The position numbers and the translations under genes are program-made. This document shows, piece after piece, positions 42,663 to 49,117 of a DNA stretch of 64,000 bases. How positions within the stretch are numbered: the stretch's first letter is position 1; each line of letters starts with the position of its first letter. Source of the stretch: a bacterium (GTDB lineage Bacteria; Zhuqueibacterota; Zhuqueibacteria; Residuimicrobiales; Krinioviventaceae); the NCBI GenBank assembly GCA_963674595.2, contig CAXXFV010000016.1:96001-160000 (forward strand), read 5' to 3'. Below the pieces are notes generated by a model. It had not been told where the DNA came from. It did no database searches and saw only the letters and a program-made list of their open reading frames with translations.

Positions 42663-44171
42663 ATGACAGCAGAATTAGCGACCCGTTTCACAACTCTGGA
42701 TTGGTTTATTATATTTTTTTATATCTGTTGTATCACCGGAATCGGTGTTTTTGTGAACCGTTATGTTCACAACACTGCCGGATATATGGTGGGCGGTCGC
42801 TCCGCCGGACTGGCCTTAAACACAGCCAGTTATATTGGAACAGAACTCGGACTGGTGACGATTATGTATGCCGCCATCGAAGGTTTTAATCGGGGCTTCT
42901 CTTATTTAATTATCCCGCTTTTATCGCTGATTGCTGCTTTTTTTCTGGGTCGTACCGGATTTGTCATCACCCGGTTACGGGAAATGAAACTCACCACAAT
43001 ACCCGAGTTTTTTGAAAAACGGTTTAACCGCAAAATACGAGTCACCTCAGCTTTACTGATTGCGTTTTCCGGCATTTTGAATATGGGACTTTTTCCCAAG
43101 ATGGGCGCTACTTTTATTACCTATGCAACGGGATTGGCCGCAACCGGCGATCCGACGCTGGTTGTTAATATCGTCATGTCTGTTTTAATAATACTTGTTG
43201 TTTTGTATACGGTTATGGGCGGCATGGTGGCTGTGATTGTGTGCGACTATATTCAGTTTACTGTGCTGAGCATCGGTTTGTTAATAGGCCTTTATTATTC
43301 CCTGACACTGCCGTCTTTGGGATGGCATAACATAACAACGACCATGGCGCACGTTGGCGGGGAACCTCTTTTTAATCCGTTTCACTCTAAAAGTTATGGT
43401 GTCTTGTACGCTGTGTGGATGTTTGTCATTTATATGACCTATGGTTTTACCTGGGGGCCTGTTGCTTCCCGGGCGCTGACCGCCAAAGACCCGAAAACAG
43501 CAAGACGAACGTTTTTATTAGGTTCACCCGGCCAATTTATACGTCTGGCTATTCCGGCCATGTTTGCGTTTGCGGCTTTTACCTATTTTTATTCACATCC
43601 TGTTTTGGCTGAACATTTTTTCCCCGGCGGTCAACCGGATGCACTCAAAGCGCCGCAGGCCATGCCCTTGTTTTTGGGACAGATCATTCCGGCCGGACTT
43701 ATCGGGGTGCTTGTGGCCGGACTGCTGGCGGCCTTTATGTCCACGCATGATTCCTATTTTTTAACCTGGGCCTCGGTTATCAGCCGCGATATTATTTCTC
43801 CTTTTAAAAAAGGCAAAATTACCGACAAGCAGGAAATATTCTATGCCAGAGTAACCATTGTGTTTATCGGTCTGTTTCTATTGATTTGGGGATTGTGGTA
43901 TAAACTGCCGGAGAGTGTTTGGACCTATATGGCAATTACCGGCAATATTTATGTTACCGGTGCAACCGCCGCTATAATCGGAGGCGTCTATTGGAAAAGA
44001 GCATCCAGCGCCGGCGCCCTTGCCGCCATGTTGGGAGGTTTGTTTTCTGTTCTTGGTATCGTTCCGGTAATATCTGAAAATATATCCATGGGAGTGTTGG
44101 GACTTGGAAATTATATAATTTGCGGTGTGCTGCTGATTGTGTTTTCATTGATTTTCCCGGATAAAAAATAA
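42663..44171 (+). CDS. Sodium:solute symporter (SSS)
   Basis: Y.VGGRS, TIPEFFEKRF, YT.MGGM.AV..D.IQ, AAFMSTHDS, YWKRAS..GA. Confidence 0.92.
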   Translation: MTAELATRFTTLDWFIIFFYICCITGIGVFVNRYVHNTAGYMVGGRSAGLALNTASYIGTELGLVTIMYAAIEGFNRGFSYLIIPLLSLIAAFFLGRTGFVITRLREMKLTTIPEFFEKRFNRKIRVTSALLIAFSGILNMGLFPKMGATFITYATGLAATGDPTLVVNIVMSVLIILVVLYTVMGGMVAVIVCDYIQFTVLSIGLLIGLYYSLTLPSLGWHNITTTMAHVGGEPLFNPFHSKSYGVLYAVWMFVIYMTYGFTWGPVASRALTAKDPKTARRTFLLGSPGQFIRLAIPAMFAFAAFTYFYSHPVLAEHFFPGGQPDALKAPQAMPLFLGQIIPAGLIGVLVAGLLAAFMSTHDSYFLTWASVISRDIISPFKKGKITDKQEIFYARVTIVFIGLFLLIWGLWYKLPESVWTYMAITGNIYVTGATAAIIGGVYWKRASSAGALAAMLGGLFSVLGIVPVISENISMGVLGLGNYIICGVLLIVFSLIFPDKK

Positions 44172-44182
44172 GGAGCGCTGTC

Positions 44183-44326
44183 ATGGAATTGTGGATATTG
44201 TTTTGGAAAATAATATGTTTTGTGGGCTTTACCGCATTTATCCTGACCGTATTGTTTATTGTGCCTTTTGGCGCCAGGGACATTATAGGGCTTTTTAAAA
44301 GCCTTGGAAGGAAAAGAACACATTAG
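44183..44326 (+). CDS. 47-aa single-TM membrane protein, probable SSS accessory (absent from the ORF track)
   Basis: AAGGAG SD at the SSS stop; MELWILFWKIICFVGFTAFILTVLFIVPFGARDIIGLFKSLGRKRTH*. Confidence 0.72.
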   Translation: MELWILFWKIICFVGFTAFILTVLFIVPFGARDIIGLFKSLGRKRTH

Positions 44327-44353
44327 ATGCTGTATGCTTTAACAGATAACACC

Positions 44354-44382
44354 TTGACTTTGTTCTGTTAAAGTTTTAAATT
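44354..44382 (+). promoter_or_regulatory. Sigma70-like promoter inside a 10-bp inverted repeat
   Basis: TTGACT-17 nt-TAAATT. CTTTAACAGA (44337-44346) and TCTGTTAAAG (44364-44373) flank the -35 box; the repeat could also be the upstream terminator. Confidence 0.5.
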
Positions 44383-44412: not shown

Positions 44413-44787
44413 ATGAATATGAAGTCGTTGTTACGATCAAAATTTTTATCATTTTTTGTTATACTTTTTTGTATTTTGTTAAACTATACAGTTTTTTCGA
44501 ATTTGCATTATCATCTGTATAGTGATGGAAAAATAGTTGTACATGGTCATCCTGTGAATCATAAGGGTTCAGATTTACCTGCTGAATCCCATAATCATTC
44601 AAAATTAGAGATGCTCATTTACTCTTCAATAATAATCAATCTTGGGATTTCTTTACAATTATTTTTTATTACGCTTTATCTTTTCAAGTTGTTTTTAGGG
44701 TTTTTGGGGCATATTCAAACATTTTTTAAAGACTTACAATTTTCGTTTTATTTCTTTCTTAGAGCACCTCCATATATCCTGTCTTAA
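44413..44787 (+). CDS. His-rich membrane leader protein ending in a RAPP ribosome-arrest-like motif
   Basis: Hydrophobic segment, HYH..DG..VVHGHP..H....HNH loop, second hydrophobic segment, LRAPPYILS*. Confidence 0.75.
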   Translation: MNMKSLLRSKFLSFFVILFCILLNYTVFSNLHYHLYSDGKIVVHGHPVNHKGSDLPAESHNHSKLEMLIYSSIIINLGISLQLFFITLYLFKLFLGFLGHIQTFFKDLQFSFYFFLRAPPYILS

Positions 44788-44963
44788 AAATTTATATAAT
44801 TTATTAAAAAATTAGGCTTGTATTAACCTGTCTCTTTTATTGTGCTATTTATTTAGACAGGTTCATAACGTCTTTATGTGGATTATAATAATCTGCTCAT
44901 AAGCGTTTTTGCCCTGGTTTGATTTATTTAACTATTTATCAAGTATAATCGGAGATTTGGATT

Positions 44964-46289
44964 ATGAGGTTTAAACCTTTTAAGGTGTTTTTATATTGGA
45001 TTATTTTTATTGCTTTGATTATTGCGAACAGTCTTTTTGCTGATGATCAGAAAAATGAAAATAAAATTTCAGAAATGGACCAGAACCAGAATTATAAAAT
45101 TCAAAAGTTGGATTCGTTAATAATTGTACTGGAAGAAAAGATTAATAAAAAAGAAAAAGAAGACGCTTTAAAAAAATTAATGGAAGAAGCTAAAGCACTT
45201 TCTTCTCAACAGCGAAAGAAAAGTTCTGGGATTGGGAAAAAATTTCACTCCGGTGCCAGACAGCAATCCGGTTTGAATCCAAACATCAGTCTTGGTGGAG
45301 ATTTTTTTGGTGCTGTCAGTAGTGAAAAAAATGAATTTATAAATGAACCCAGTGATTTTAATTATGGTACAAACAGATTTGAGTTACGTGAAGTTGAGAT
45401 CAGTTTAAATGCACCGTTAGATCCGTTTACCAGGGGAAAAACCCATATTTCTTTTACAGAAAATTCTCTCAGTGTTGAAGAAGCATATTTACAGTGGCTT
45501 AATTTGCCATTAAATATGAATTTAAAAATGGGTTTGTTTAATGCTGAATTTGGGTTGTTAAACAGATACCATGATCACGCTTTGCCTCAATTTGACAGAC
45601 CAAGAGTTTTGGTCAATACTTTTACCAGCGGTTCCTTGGGTGGTTTTGGGCTTTCGGGTAATTTTTTACTACCGAGAATTCTTTTTTCTGATGCGTCCAA
45701 TTTTGATGCCAGTATTATTCGTGGGGGTAACAATGTGAGCTTTACCAGCGAAGGTGATTATAATCTGATTTATACTGGCCAGTTAATAAATTATTATGAT
45801 ATTACTGAAGATACTTACTTTGAGTGGGTGCTTGGCGGTGCCACCGGGTATAATGATGCTATGGAAGAACACAGAAGCTATCTTGGAAATTTGGGTTTTG
45901 TTGTTAAATGGATTCCAATCGGCAGGGAAAAATACAAAACTATAGATTGGAAAACAGAGTTTCTTGTAAACAAACGAAAGGGACCTGTGGAAACAGTCAC
46001 AACCCGAGGTTTTTATTCTTCGCTTCAAAATAAACTTAATGCAAAATATTGGCTTTCTGCAAGGATTGGTTATTCCGAGTTGCCCTTTGATAAATGCCAA
46101 AATGAACGGGATTATACTCTGTGCCTTGATTATTGGCAGAGTGAGTTTGTATTTTATCGTATTCAATACCAGTATTTACAGCGAAATATCACTCAATATT
46201 TCGATTATACCGGAGATATGCCGGATTATCATACAGTTTTATTTCAAGTATGTTGGGCAATGGGCCCACATAAACATGAAGCCTATTAA
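44964..46289 (+). CDS. Outer-membrane porin-like beta-barrel with N-terminal coiled coil and His-rich C-tail (metal-uptake associated)
   Basis: Signal peptide, LNPNISL.GD, ELREVE....PLDPF, EEAY, FG.LN..H.H, SEF..YR.QY; ends GPHKHEAY. Confidence 0.78.
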   Translation: MRFKPFKVFLYWIIFIALIIANSLFADDQKNENKISEMDQNQNYKIQKLDSLIIVLEEKINKKEKEDALKKLMEEAKALSSQQRKKSSGIGKKFHSGARQQSGLNPNISLGGDFFGAVSSEKNEFINEPSDFNYGTNRFELREVEISLNAPLDPFTRGKTHISFTENSLSVEEAYLQWLNLPLNMNLKMGLFNAEFGLLNRYHDHALPQFDRPRVLVNTFTSGSLGGFGLSGNFLLPRILFSDASNFDASIIRGGNNVSFTSEGDYNLIYTGQLINYYDITEDTYFEWVLGGATGYNDAMEEHRSYLGNLGFVVKWIPIGREKYKTIDWKTEFLVNKRKGPVETVTTRGFYSSLQNKLNAKYWLSARIGYSELPFDKCQNERDYTLCLDYWQSEFVFYRIQYQYLQRNITQYFDYTGDMPDYHTVLFQVCWAMGPHKHEAY

Positions 46290-46325
46290 AAGTAATTTTT
46301 AATATATTAAAAATTGGAGAATTTT

Positions 46326-47402
46326 ATGAAACGCCTATTTTCTACGAGTTTTCTGCTGTTTTTTCTCGCATTGTTTTTCGTAAGCAGCCCTTTATTATAT
46401 TCATCGCAGAATCGACATCGAAATCGTGCAGGACAAAAAAGTAAACCTTTAAATATTGTCTGTTCTTTTTCAGACTATGCATCAATAGCAAAATTTATTG
46501 TTCAGGATTATGGTACTGTTGATTATATCGCATCCGGGGAACAGGACCCCCATTTTGTCCCTCCAAAGCCGAGTTTTGCCATGAAATTAAAAGATGCTGA
46601 TTTGTGGATTACAACCGGTATGGATTTGGAAGGTTGGGCGCCTGTTTTGCTGGACAAGGCCAGAAATAAAAAGATTATGGACGGTGAAATTGGTTTTGTG
46701 GCAGTCTCTGATGGTGTTCAGATTTTGGAAAAGGTAGAAAAAGCTGATCGTACTGAAGGTGATATTCACCTGATGGGGAATCCTCACTTTAACACCGGGC
46801 CGACAAAGTGGAGAAAAATAGCTGAAAATATAACAATCGGATTGCAAAAGGTCGATCCGGATAATGCTGATTTTTATATTTCCAGAAGAGACGCATTTAT
46901 CGATAAGGTTGACAGGGCGCTTTTTGGAGATCAATTAGTTGAAATGTTTGGCGGCGAGTTGTTAGTTAATCTTTTGAATAACAAAACACTTTTCGAATTT
47001 TTGGACAAGGATTATGAAGGCGGCAAGCTGGTTGATATACTGGGAGGCTGGTTAAAAGAGGCCCTGCCGTTTCGCGGAAAGAAAATAATGGCTTACCATA
47101 AAAACTGGGCCTATTTTTCCGATATTTTTGGTTTGGAAATTGTGGGCTATATTGAACCCAAACCGGGTATCCCGCCGTCTGCAAAACATGTGCAGAAAAT
47201 GATTAGACTGATTAAAGACCAAAACATCGGAATTATGCTTGTAGCAAGCTATTTTGAAAAAAAATCCCCACAAATGATTGAAAGCAAAACAGGGATTAAA
47301 GCTTTGTTTTTACCGCTTTTTGTGAATGGAATCCCGGAAGTTACGAATAATTTTGAACTCGTCGATTACTGGATTAATCAGATTAATGCCCATATTAAAT
47401 AG
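46326..47402 (+). CDS. ZnuA/TroA-family (cluster A-I) metal-binding protein
   Basis: QDPHFV.PKPS, G.DLE.W, GDIH..GNPH, YHKNW.YF, EPKPGIPPS.KH. Confidence 0.9.
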   Translation: MKRLFSTSFLLFFLALFFVSSPLLYSSQNRHRNRAGQKSKPLNIVCSFSDYASIAKFIVQDYGTVDYIASGEQDPHFVPPKPSFAMKLKDADLWITTGMDLEGWAPVLLDKARNKKIMDGEIGFVAVSDGVQILEKVEKADRTEGDIHLMGNPHFNTGPTKWRKIAENITIGLQKVDPDNADFYISRRDAFIDKVDRALFGDQLVEMFGGELLVNLLNNKTLFEFLDKDYEGGKLVDILGGWLKEALPFRGKKIMAYHKNWAYFSDIFGLEIVGYIEPKPGIPPSAKHVQKMIRLIKDQNIGIMLVASYFEKKSPQMIESKTGIKALFLPLFVNGIPEVTNNFELVDYWINQINAHIK

Positions 47403-47413
47403 AAAGATGTAAT

Positions 47414-48244
47414 ATGATAGAAAATTTAATATTTTTATCTGCCCCTATTACGGCAAGTGTTTTACTTGCCGGTATGCTGAGTTATTTTGGCAATCATATT
47501 CTCACCAGAGGTATTATATTTATCGATATTGCACTGGCACAAATTGCCGCGCTCGGTACAATGATCGGACTGTTATTCGGTCTGGTTGAAGGTTCGGGCG
47601 CCATAGAATTTGTGTCATTGGGATTTACGGTCGTTGTCATTGCTGTATTTGCTTTGACCAAATTTGAAAAACAAGTGATACCCCAGGAAGCCATTATAGG
47701 AATTATATATGGATTGGGTTTAGGGCTTGCGATGTTGTTAGCTGAAAAAATTCCCGGTGGGTCAAATTATATAACAAAAACGATTACCGGAAACATCCTT
47801 TGGGTAACCTGGGACGTCATATTGTCCTGTTTGGTTTTGTTTGTTTCTATTTTTATCATTCATTTTATTTTTAGAAAACCATTTATGCAAATTTCAGAGT
47901 CCAGAGACAAGTTGCCGTTTTCAATTAATAAGGTCCGAATGTATGAACTTTTGTTTTATATTACATTCAGTATCATCGTTGTTCGGGCTGTTCAGATTGG
48001 TGGTATATTTTTGGTTTTTGTTCTTTTAATTGCCCCTACTGCAATCAGTACTCTGTTTACAAATAATTGGCTGTATCGGTTCATTTGGAGCTGGATCATC
48101 GGTATTGTTGGTTCTGTTGCCGGCGTCTATATCTCCTATGAGATGAATATTTCCAATGGTCCCGCTATTGTTTGTTTGCTGGGCATAATGGTGTTCCTGT
48201 GTGTCGGGGCAAGATTGCTTTTTAAACTAAAAGTAAAAAATTGA
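47414..48244 (+). CDS. ZnuB/ABC-3 metal permease
   Basis: FG.H...RGIIFIDIALAQIAALG, QEAIIGI.Y, GNILWV, GGIFLVF..LIAP, GPAIV. Confidence 0.88.
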   Translation: MIENLIFLSAPITASVLLAGMLSYFGNHILTRGIIFIDIALAQIAALGTMIGLLFGLVEGSGAIEFVSLGFTVVVIAVFALTKFEKQVIPQEAIIGIIYGLGLGLAMLLAEKIPGGSNYITKTITGNILWVTWDVILSCLVLFVSIFIIHFIFRKPFMQISESRDKLPFSINKVRMYELLFYITFSIIVVRAVQIGGIFLVFVLLIAPTAISTLFTNNWLYRFIWSWIIGIVGSVAGVYISYEMNISNGPAIVCLLGIMVFLCVGARLLFKLKVKN

Positions 48245-48256
48245 TATGGAGATATT

Positions 48257-49117
48257 ATGATTGCAGCCTTACAATTTATGATTGCACCTTTTATTGCGTG
48301 TTTGTTATTAATTGGTATAAATATTTATTTTGGAATTCATGTCATCAAGCGTGAAATTATTTTTATTGATATTGCCCTGGCACAGATCGCTGCCCTGGGT
48401 GGGACAATTGCTGCTGTTTTACAAATGAGCCATTCAGAAGGTGTACATCACCACGATGAACAGAGCCTGTTTGTATATTTGTTTTCAATAGGTTTTACAA
48501 CTATTGCCGCTGCTCTGTTTGCTTTTATCAAAAATAAAAAGTTAAATATTCCTTTGGAATCTTTGATCGGCATTGCCTATGCTGTTGCTGCAACCGGGGC
48601 GGTCGTTATTCTGGACAAAGCTGCCGGTGGAGATGTTCATGTTCATGAAATGTTTGCCGGATCTATATTATGGGTTAGCTGGCAACAAAATTTATATTTA
48701 TTCCTGGCTTTTGCTGTTATTGGTTTGTTTCATTTTGTTTTTCGAAAAAAGTTTTTTCAACTATCTGATAATTACTATGGAAAAAAGTCAAGTATGTTGT
48801 GGGATTTTTTGTTTTATGCAACCTTTGGCATAACGGTTGTTCATTCCATTGAGGTTGGAGGTATTTTAACGATATTTGGATTTTTAATCATTCCGGCAAG
48901 TATTTCGGCCTTGTTTTCAACCAGTTGGACCAGTCGTATTATTACCGGTTGGGTTATCGGAACGCTGGTAAGTGCTGCGGGATTATATTTATCATGGACG
49001 GTTGATATTCCCAGTGCCCCTACGGTGATCTTGTTTCTGGGTGTGGCATTGGTATTGGCCCTGCTTTTTAAAACAATACAAAAACATTTGTTCAAAAAAT
49101 CAGAAAAAGCGGCCTGA
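48257..49117 (+). CDS. ZnuB/ABC-3 metal permease (second paralog, HHH loop)
   Basis: FGIHVIKREIIFIDIALAQIAALG, SHSEGVHHHDE, GSILWV, WDFLFY.TFG. Confidence 0.88.
   Translation: MIAALQFMIAPFIACLLLIGINIYFGIHVIKREIIFIDIALAQIAALGGTIAAVLQMSHSEGVHHHDEQSLFVYLFSIGFTTIAAALFAFIKNKKLNIPLESLIGIAYAVAATGAVVILDKAAGGDVHVHEMFAGSILWVSWQQNLYLFLAFAVIGLFHFVFRKKFFQLSDNYYGKKSSMLWDFLFYATFGITVVHSIEVGGILTIFGFLIIPASISALFSTSWTSRIITGWVIGTLVSAAGLYLSWTVDIPSAPTVILFLGVALVLALLFKTIQKHLFKKSEKAA

Follow-up and report, generated by a model that had tools for sequence, protein, structure and literature searches.

A six-histidine, RAPP-terminated leader ahead of a porin and ZnuA-type importer operon is a probable metal-sensing arrest peptide

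In a 64,000-nucleotide (nt) stretch of contig CAXXFV010000016.1 (forward strand, positions 96,001 to 160,000; hereafter the window) from a bacterium of the phylum Zhuqueibacterota, a metal-uptake operon is headed by a small open reading frame (ORF) of 124 amino acids (aa), here called the leader (Table 1). We propose, with a probability of roughly 65%, that this leader is a metal-sensing, probably zinc-sensing, arrest peptide that works like CruR of Bordetella pertussis, such that its histidine loop would bind metal outside the inner membrane, its C-terminal RAPP motif would stall the ribosome, and the fate of the stall would set the expression of the transport genes behind it. Each of these functional steps is one that we infer from comparison with known leaders. 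An earlier note on this DNA had viewed the leader as a histidine-liganded version of a CruR-like leader, and that interpretation is supported: the comparative evidence favors the histidine-for-cysteine exchange and the RAPP ending, while stalling, metal response and coupling to downstream expression would follow by analogy. The kinship with CruR did not stand, as the leader lies outside the CruR family DUF2946 and in a separate, unnamed family.

The leader has an ATG start and a TAA stop. Its basic N-terminus (MNMKSLLRSK) runs into a first hydrophobic segment (approximately residues 10–28), followed by a loop with seven histidines (residues 32, 34, 44, 46, 50, 60, and 62) and, judged by hydropathy, a second hydrophobic segment (approximately residues 64–98), after which comes an eighth histidine at residue 100. 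Since the sole cysteine is C20, the protein has no CxxC. It ends in LRAPPYILS, with RAPP at residues 117–120, and its stop codon is separated by 176 nt from the ATG of the porin gene. Re-checking the 124-codon ORF confirmed the two hydrophobic segments, the seven loop histidines, the lack of CxxC and the RAPP four residues before the stop that had been described for it earlier, and its position 176 nt upstream of four metal-uptake genes (for a porin, for a binding protein of the ZnuA type and for a pair of ABC-3 permeases) was likewise correct. An AlphaFold2 (AF2) model built from the family alignment (predicted local distance difference test, pLDDT, 83.8) contained a helix at residues 3–29, a beta-hairpin at 31–35/41–45 and a long helix at 64–115, with a less confident loop between the hairpin and the long helix. 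In this model the first four histidines are on the two strands of the hairpin, between the two long helices, and would point to one side of it. Hydropathy together with helix 3–29 indicates a localisation signal in this small ORF just upstream of transport genes, a trait shared with the RAPP-type arrest peptides (ApdA, ApdP, ApcA, and CruR).

Members of the leader's family were found with HMMER, which, run exhaustively over 1.84 billion cluster representatives, yielded 290 matches at E ≤ 0.001. The family counts that follow are from the best 150 of these 290 minus P0002, a protein of 1647 aa with 29 matched stretches that we took as a repeat artefact (n = 149). An xxPP motif lies within 20 residues of the C-terminus in 146 of the 149 homologs, in the form of RAPP (90), RGPP (31), RSPP (10), GPPP (4), KSPP (4), KAPP (3), RPPP (2), HAPP (1) or RLPP (1); the three that lack it, of 82, 84, and 107 aa, appear to be truncated. 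The ending on whose conservation among orthologs the earlier proposal had depended is thus retained, 121 of the 149 carrying RAPP or RGPP. Three HxH pairs are present in 144 of 149 homologs and CxxC in just 3. In an alignment of the window leader with 100 family members (101 sequences; mean column identity 27%), H32, H34, H44, H46, H62, P119, and P120 are invariant, and G39, P47, H60, and R117 are at least 90% conserved. Spacings could be taken from 142 of 150 sequences in which both motifs were found by the patterns used, the other eight being outside this measurement: the first and second HxH are 12 residues apart in 136/142 (window: 12), the second and third 16 or 17 apart in 123/142 (window: 16), and the third HxH is 53–59 residues from RxPP in all 142 (window: 57). 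The R(A/G)PP itself is 1–15 residues before the stop across the family, mostly 2–3. Helix 2 and the tail are therefore poorly conserved in sequence and fixed in length, behaving as a spacer of set length.

A typical member is about 120 aa long and has an N-terminal membrane anchor, a short histidine loop (HxH, HxHP, HxH), a hydrophobic helix 2 and a C-terminal RxPP; the window leader has these spacings, the second hydrophobic helix, the C-terminal RxPP and every invariant column. We found no name for the family in existing collections: Pfam returned nothing for the leader at E up to 1, NCBIfam contained no family for it, and a word-index homolog search with the single leader protein gave no match. 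Two leads were set aside, namely weak NCBIfam rows (Na+/H+ antiporter subunit C and a HypB prefix; E 0.04–0.15), which are far below the cut-offs, and DUF6769 (PF20558), suggested by the ESM Atlas at a score of 0.93, which has no match in the genome. The 30 nearest ESM Atlas clusters are all without a Pfam family, their commonest source being Bacteroidota. A profile search returned 108 proteins, none with a precomputed Pfam domain, and the informative names among them were "hypothetical protein" from Sunxiuqinia elliptica, Fibrella species, Parabacteroides sp. and metagenome-assembled genomes of Bacteroidales or Bacteroidota; a Joint Genome Institute row labelled NRAMP transporter was taken as a mislabel. 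Within the window's own phylum, which is thinly sampled, the family matched (E ≤ 1e-5) in 46 of 167 genomes and in 31 of the 105 high-quality ones.

The genes behind the leader are also conserved in kind. We sampled 51 loci from related genomes, with ORFs called by a simple script and 106 same-strand downstream ORFs scanned against Pfam; 48 of the loci had downstream DNA and the other three had none. A TonB-dependent receptor or a porin/ZnuA/ABC-3 importer was downstream of the leader in 44/48 loci: the receptor was the next gene in 28 and lay within three genes in two (in one of these, L051, NicO and DUF1007 genes came after it), a porin-like gene followed by ZnuA and/or ABC-3 genes was found in 13, and one locus had a cut porin-like gene (49% identical). 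The remaining four comprised a PepSY_TM-like cluster, a cut gene of no family, and two with apparently unrelated genes, the leader lacking PP in one of these two. The co-conservation of histidine loop, terminal RAPP/RGPP and position before metal transporters for which the earlier note had proposed a check was thus found (144/149, 146/149, and 44/48, respectively). Both kinds of target occur together at L034, where a TonB-dependent receptor is followed by porin-like and ZnuA genes, and at L031 (1–12279), where a single strand encodes a leader, porin, ZnuA, two permeases, a second leader and a TonB-dependent receptor, with proteins 56–68% identical to the four downstream proteins of the window. 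The genome of the window has three six-histidine copies, the window's own and a tandem pair immediately ahead of a TonB-dependent receptor (contig C23, L007 10938–11827, minus strand); tandem leaders before a single TonB-dependent receptor were also present in 5 of the 51 relatives' loci (L010, L012, L019, L020, and L040), and such pairs could form a two-input or amplified switch.

The same type of operon was found behind leaders of another kind. In three other genomes (L001, L002, and L003), orthologous porin-ZnuA-ABC-3 operons with porins 43–50% identical to that of the window are each headed by a small ORF that encodes a membrane anchor, HNH and CPAC, and has SRAPP 3–7 residues before the stop. 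These leaders share with that of the window the position, the downstream operon, the N-terminal anchor, HNH and the RAPP tail, but they carry CPAC and are without the second and third HxH; no Pfam family matched them at E ≤ 10, DUF2946 included. We rejected them as homologs of the six-histidine family, as a profile comparison aligned the RAPP tail alone (probability 10.9%). Orthologous operons headed by CxxC and RAPP leaders indicate a constant operon with a variable ligand set.

The motif is rare in the genome of the window. Across the whole 6.6 Mb, R[AG]PP occurred 22 times in 17,599 six-frame ORFs of at least 60 aa; eight of the occurrences were no more than 12 residues from the C-terminus, in ORFs of at most 250 aa, and six of these eight ORFs were small His/Cys membrane leaders before transporters. 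Beyond the six-histidine copies, the genome has three further leaders ending in RAPP or RGPP. Two of them are of an HNH..CP type before TonB-dependent receptors (L059 327–3347, contig C16; L060 347–3069, contig C23), with FHNH..PD..H..CP and the endings KRGPP or SRAPP, and resemble the L001–L003 leaders minus the second cysteine. The third (L061 4–6437, contig C28) is a His-rich 132-aa leader ending in QRAPPVFC, directly before an operon of OEP, membrane-fusion and AcrB/CzcA-type resistance-nodulation-division (RND) efflux genes; on such an export system the opposite polarity would be expected. With its conserved histidines and RxPP, and given the rarity of R[AG]PP, the feature is more than chance.

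Leaders with this ending have precedents, of which CruR is the closest. As described in the parts of Roy et al. (2022; PMC9426467) used here, CruR (Bp2923) is a DUF2946 (PF11162) protein with CxxC and RAPP, and the TonB-dependent transporter encoded behind it is expressed only if arrest occurs; copper, for which CxxC is the sensor, lifts the arrest and leads to Rho-dependent termination, and the spacing of 45 residues between CxxC and RAPP is fixed and functionally required. The window leader resembles CruR as a small exported protein whose gene comes first in a metal-uptake operon, with RAPP three to four residues before the stop, a predicted periplasmic metal-ligand motif at a fixed distance from it, and a long spacer ahead of the next gene, which for CruR is that of a TonB-dependent transporter. 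The constant distance between sensor and RxPP, despite the barely conserved sequence in between, parallels the required spacing of CruR. The two differ in that six histidines stand here in place of CxxC, a hydrophobic helix 2 lies between sensor and RAPP, the sensor-RAPP spacing is 53–59 rather than 45, the window's target is a porin with a ZnuA-type ABC importer, zinc takes the place of copper as the likely metal, and instead of Proteobacteria the carriers belong to the window's own phylum and Bacteroidota. The DUF2946 profile PF11162 matched neither the leader nor anything in the whole genome, while it matched in 2 of 14 control genomes, so we regard the leader as belonging to a separate family. 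CutF of Rhodobacter capsulatus, also of DUF2946, is a second relevant case, in which, according to the sections of the preprint consulted (bioRxiv 10.1101/2025.02.05.636593), a copper-induced stall at a C-terminal proline motif melts a stem-loop hiding the cutO ribosome-binding site. A comparable start-site-masking helix is predicted for the window leader (see below), but the leader is of another protein family, and CutF controls a detoxifying oxidase with copper inducing the stall, whereas for the uptake operon studied here the opposite polarity would be expected.

An alternative that we consider unlikely is that the ORF encodes a stable two-helix inner-membrane metal-binding protein acting in trans, as a periplasm-facing zinc chaperone or an accessory subunit of the receptor or importer, in which RxPP at the C-terminus would have a part in structure or interaction, or would slow translation to aid membrane insertion. 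The confident AF2 model does resemble a real hairpin-plus-two-helix protein, the six invariant or near-invariant histidines could make a permanent site, and the tandem copies could be subunits. Set against this, helix 2 and the tail are kept in length and not in sequence, which fits a spacer better than an interface; the leader gene is always first, just upstream of its target; orthologous operons carry unrelated CxxC and RAPP leaders at the same spot; and RAPP and RGPP are strongly avoided in proteomes and stall ribosomes robustly in many contexts, as reported in the portions consulted of Fujiwara et al. (2025, EMBO J; PMC12992588). The same portions report an enrichment of both motifs at the C-terminal ends of small proteins, secreted or membrane-bound, encoded ahead of genes for TonB-dependent receptors, PCu(A)C, YcnI, PepSY and others, and an arrest function of RAPP is likewise covered by the part of PMC10951233 used here. 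Members of the six-histidine family are in fact present as "hypothetical protein" rows upstream of "TonB-dependent receptor" in the source-data file uORF_List_RAPP.csv of PMC12992588. In the main text of that paper the word "zinc" occurs 0 times and "histidine" is used for Streptomyces proteins alone, the family and its histidines not being described in the portions consulted; the part of its supplements that was searched contained no "ZnuA", "zinc ABC" or "metal ABC transporter", so that a mention elsewhere in them is possible. Our literature search turned up no report of a RAPP leader that involves zinc or histidines.

Among proteins of solved structure, YcdH of B. subtilis (E 2.6e-17) and ZnuA of Synechocystis (E 3.6e-14) come closest to the binding protein of the window, and its DPH, NPH and H-x-x-WAYF motifs align with those of Synechocystis ZnuA, which presumably hold the three zinc-ligand histidines. 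Manganese-type binding proteins have Glu and Asp at the later ligand positions. The motifs point to zinc, short of proof. For the 441-aa product of the first gene no Pfam sequence family was found, and its assignment comes from an AF2 beta-barrel model (pLDDT 83) with 263 Foldseek matches in the PDB at E ≤ 0.001, the top ones being MOMP, OprP, Omp32 and OprO (Campylobacter jejuni MOMP 5ldt, E 2.9e-11; OprP 2o4v, E 4.5e-11, TM-scores 0.52/0.55); OmpF-type porins matched as well. No ATPase gene of the ATP-binding cassette (ABC) type follows permease 2, and the signature LSGG[QE] was absent from the 64-kb window and from 17 related loci, including L001–L003, which were the DNA searched for it rather than the rest of the genome; the ATPase would then be encoded elsewhere or shared, or the importer works differently. 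A 194-nt contig of an RNA library matched within the binding-protein gene (46983–47176).

Table 1. Positions of the leader, its predicted control elements and the downstream genes in the window.
Feature	Position	Strand	Basis
Perfect 10-nt inverted repeat (CTTTAACAGA, 17 nt, TCTGTTAAAG)	44337..44373	+	Repeat search
Leader ORF, 124 aa, member of the unnamed six-His/RxPP family	44413..44787	+	Profile match, E 2.9e-29
Predicted periplasmic sensor loop (H32-x-H34, H44-x-H46-P47, H60-x-H62), codons	44506..44598	+	Family conservation and spacing
AGA GCA CCT CCA (Arg-Ala-Pro-Pro), presumed ribosome-arrest site	44761..44772	+	Conservation and literature on RAPP
5' arm of predicted long-range helix: last leader codons and stop	44765..44786	+	Minimum free energy (MFE) and centroid fold
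Intergenic spacer, 176 nt, with internal 9-bp hairpin (about 44825–44863)	44788..44963	+	Fold and repeat search
3' arm of predicted helix: GGAG Shine-Dalgarno-like element, ATG (44964), first porin codons	44951..44971	+	MFE and centroid fold
Outer-membrane porin, 441 aa, N-terminal coiled coil and beta-barrel	44964..46289	+	AF2 and Foldseek, no Pfam family
Periplasmic metal-binding protein, ZnuA family, 362 aa	46314..47402	+	PF01297, E 4.4e-39
ABC-3 permease 1, 276 aa	47414..48244	+	PF00950, E 5.1e-29
ABC-3 permease 2, 286 aa, paralog of permease 1	48257..49117	+	PF00950, E 1.7e-19

In the mechanism that we propose, the N-terminus of the leader would stay in the cytoplasm and the histidine loop would be exported, and the ribosome would stall at the Pro-Pro codons, as RAPP does in ApdA, ApdP and CruR, at the moment when the loop has newly reached the periplasm, with helix 2 running through the exit tunnel and the translocon. 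At low metal the stall would persist, and the ribosome would cover the last codons of the leader and keep the operon on, through either start-site unmasking, by holding open a helix that masks the porin's Shine-Dalgarno (SD) element and start codon, or protection from Rho, as in CruR. When metal is present, most likely Zn(II), the loop would fold around the ion and pull on the nascent chain, the stall would be released, the ribosome would terminate and downstream expression would fall.

The RNA around the spacer offers a candidate for the masking helix. In a fold of the 251-nt region (z = -1.97; 10 of 200 shuffles fold as well), the two arms listed in Table 1 pair with each other in both the MFE and the centroid structure. 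The 5' arm covers the Ala-Pro-Pro-Tyr-Ile-Leu-Ser-stop codons and would be occupied by the ribosome during a stall with Pro-Pro in the P and A sites, so that stalling would expose the porin start site. At secM-secA, too, stalling exposes the downstream start site. The RNA at the leader's Pro-Pro codons reads ACCUCC, which resembles an anti-Shine-Dalgarno sequence, and across the family the first of the two Pro codons is CCU in 29 of 59 leaders, compared with 70 of 264 other Pro codons of the same genes (odds ratio 2.7, p = 0.001, the kin not being independent), a choice that creates CCUCC. Pairing was clear at the TonB-dependent receptor locus of the same genome (z = -3.24), where CCCCCUCUGG, found at the Pro codons, complements CCAGAGG in the ribosome-binding region of the receptor. 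A scan for intrinsic terminators found no terminator-like site in the spacer.

Several observations weigh against the proposed sensor or its coupling to the operon. The leader-porin duplex by itself (-16.2 kcal/mol) was reached by 39 of 500 shuffles and is not significant alone. Over 49 loci the pairing of leader end and start region was mixed, with a mean z of -0.44 and z above +1 at nine loci; eight of the 49 were in the 5% tail where about 2.5 are expected, and the signal is diluted as the start codons given by the script are sometimes wrong. Leaders with CCUCC were not enriched for SD-bearing downstream starts (17/26 vs. 13/23, p = 0.57), and a count by eye found no obvious C-rich, G-poor Rho-loading tract in the spacer. 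RSPP, the ending of 10 of the 149 members, and the other variants, carried by about 15, may differ in arrest strength. TonB-dependent receptors next to leaders had just generic matches in PDB and NCBIfam searches, with no substrate-specific model among them that would point to a metal. A mature two-helix protein with a folded six-histidine site could have a function of its own. Lastly, no RNA-library contig matched the leader, the runs being contigs, and they allow no conclusion on transcription.

The arrest design may also hold with a different input. We give a low probability to the leader answering to a ligand other than zinc, such as Cu(II), Ni(II), Co(II), Fe(II), Mn(II) or a metallophore complex, or working with reversed polarity, metal inducing the stall as it does in CutF, whose polarity is reported as such in the preprint sections cited above. 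His-only sites bind several divalent ions, the NicO and DUF1007 genes after the receptor of L051 would suit another metal, and metal induction would be expected of the RAPP leader before RND efflux genes in the same genome; yet the operon has a three-histidine, zinc-type binding protein whose nearest solved relatives are zinc proteins, the lack of Cys or Met ligands argues against Cu(I), and for an uptake operon one expects its own metal to repress rather than induce expression. It is highly improbable that the leader monitors secretion or insertion in the manner of SecM or MifM, with incidental histidines and a stall that reports translocon or YidC capacity, for although, like ApdA and ApdP (PMC7897499, in the part consulted), it has both RAPP at its end and an N-terminal localisation signal, its six histidines are invariant or nearly so and in none of the 48 informative loci was a downstream gene sec or yidC.

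To our knowledge, metal-sensing arrest peptides have been shown for copper alone and within DUF2946 alone, as CruR and CutF. Compared with these two, the leader described here brings another protein family, a proposed all-histidine sensor, an extra membrane helix, a probable specificity for zinc and a ZnuA-type importer as target. A wider claim, which we put forward tentatively and rate somewhat below an even chance, sees in the six-histidine/RxPP family a widespread nascent-chain switch for zinc, and the first metal sensor among arrest peptides that uses neither cysteine nor copper. If it is true, the window's phylum and Bacteroidota would gauge periplasmic zinc while a leader is being translated and would in this way gate outer-membrane receptors and the porin-ZnuA importer, with a switch that could replace Zur or act on top of it. 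Tandem leaders would then provide two-input control, and the exchange of ligand sets (six histidines, HNH..CPAC, or HNH..CP) on the same operon would retune the metal sensed. Should the leader work as proposed, metal sensing by arrest peptides would reach a further metal, further bacterial groups and ABC importers, and it would account for hundreds of "hypothetical protein" genes before TonB-dependent receptors. The natural series of sensor loops on one operon would lend itself to the question of how a ligand outside the membrane signals to the ribosome, and Sunxiuqinia elliptica and Fibrella species are cultured carriers for experiments.

Upstream of the leader, the inverted repeat of Table 1 brackets a promoter-like -35 hexamer approximately 40–75 nt before the leader start (promoter-like site 44354–44382); it could be a repressor operator, for example for Zur, or the terminator of the upstream symporter gene. 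That gene encodes a sodium:solute symporter (42663–44171) and is followed after 12 nt by an ORF for a 47-aa hydrophobic protein of no family (44183–44326), which may be a small subunit of the symporter. A gene for an ICMT/PEMT-like membrane methyltransferase was seen in or after the porin-ZnuA operon of two relatives, with Pfam support in L030 (4702–5199) and as an impression from the translation in L001 (4676–5314).

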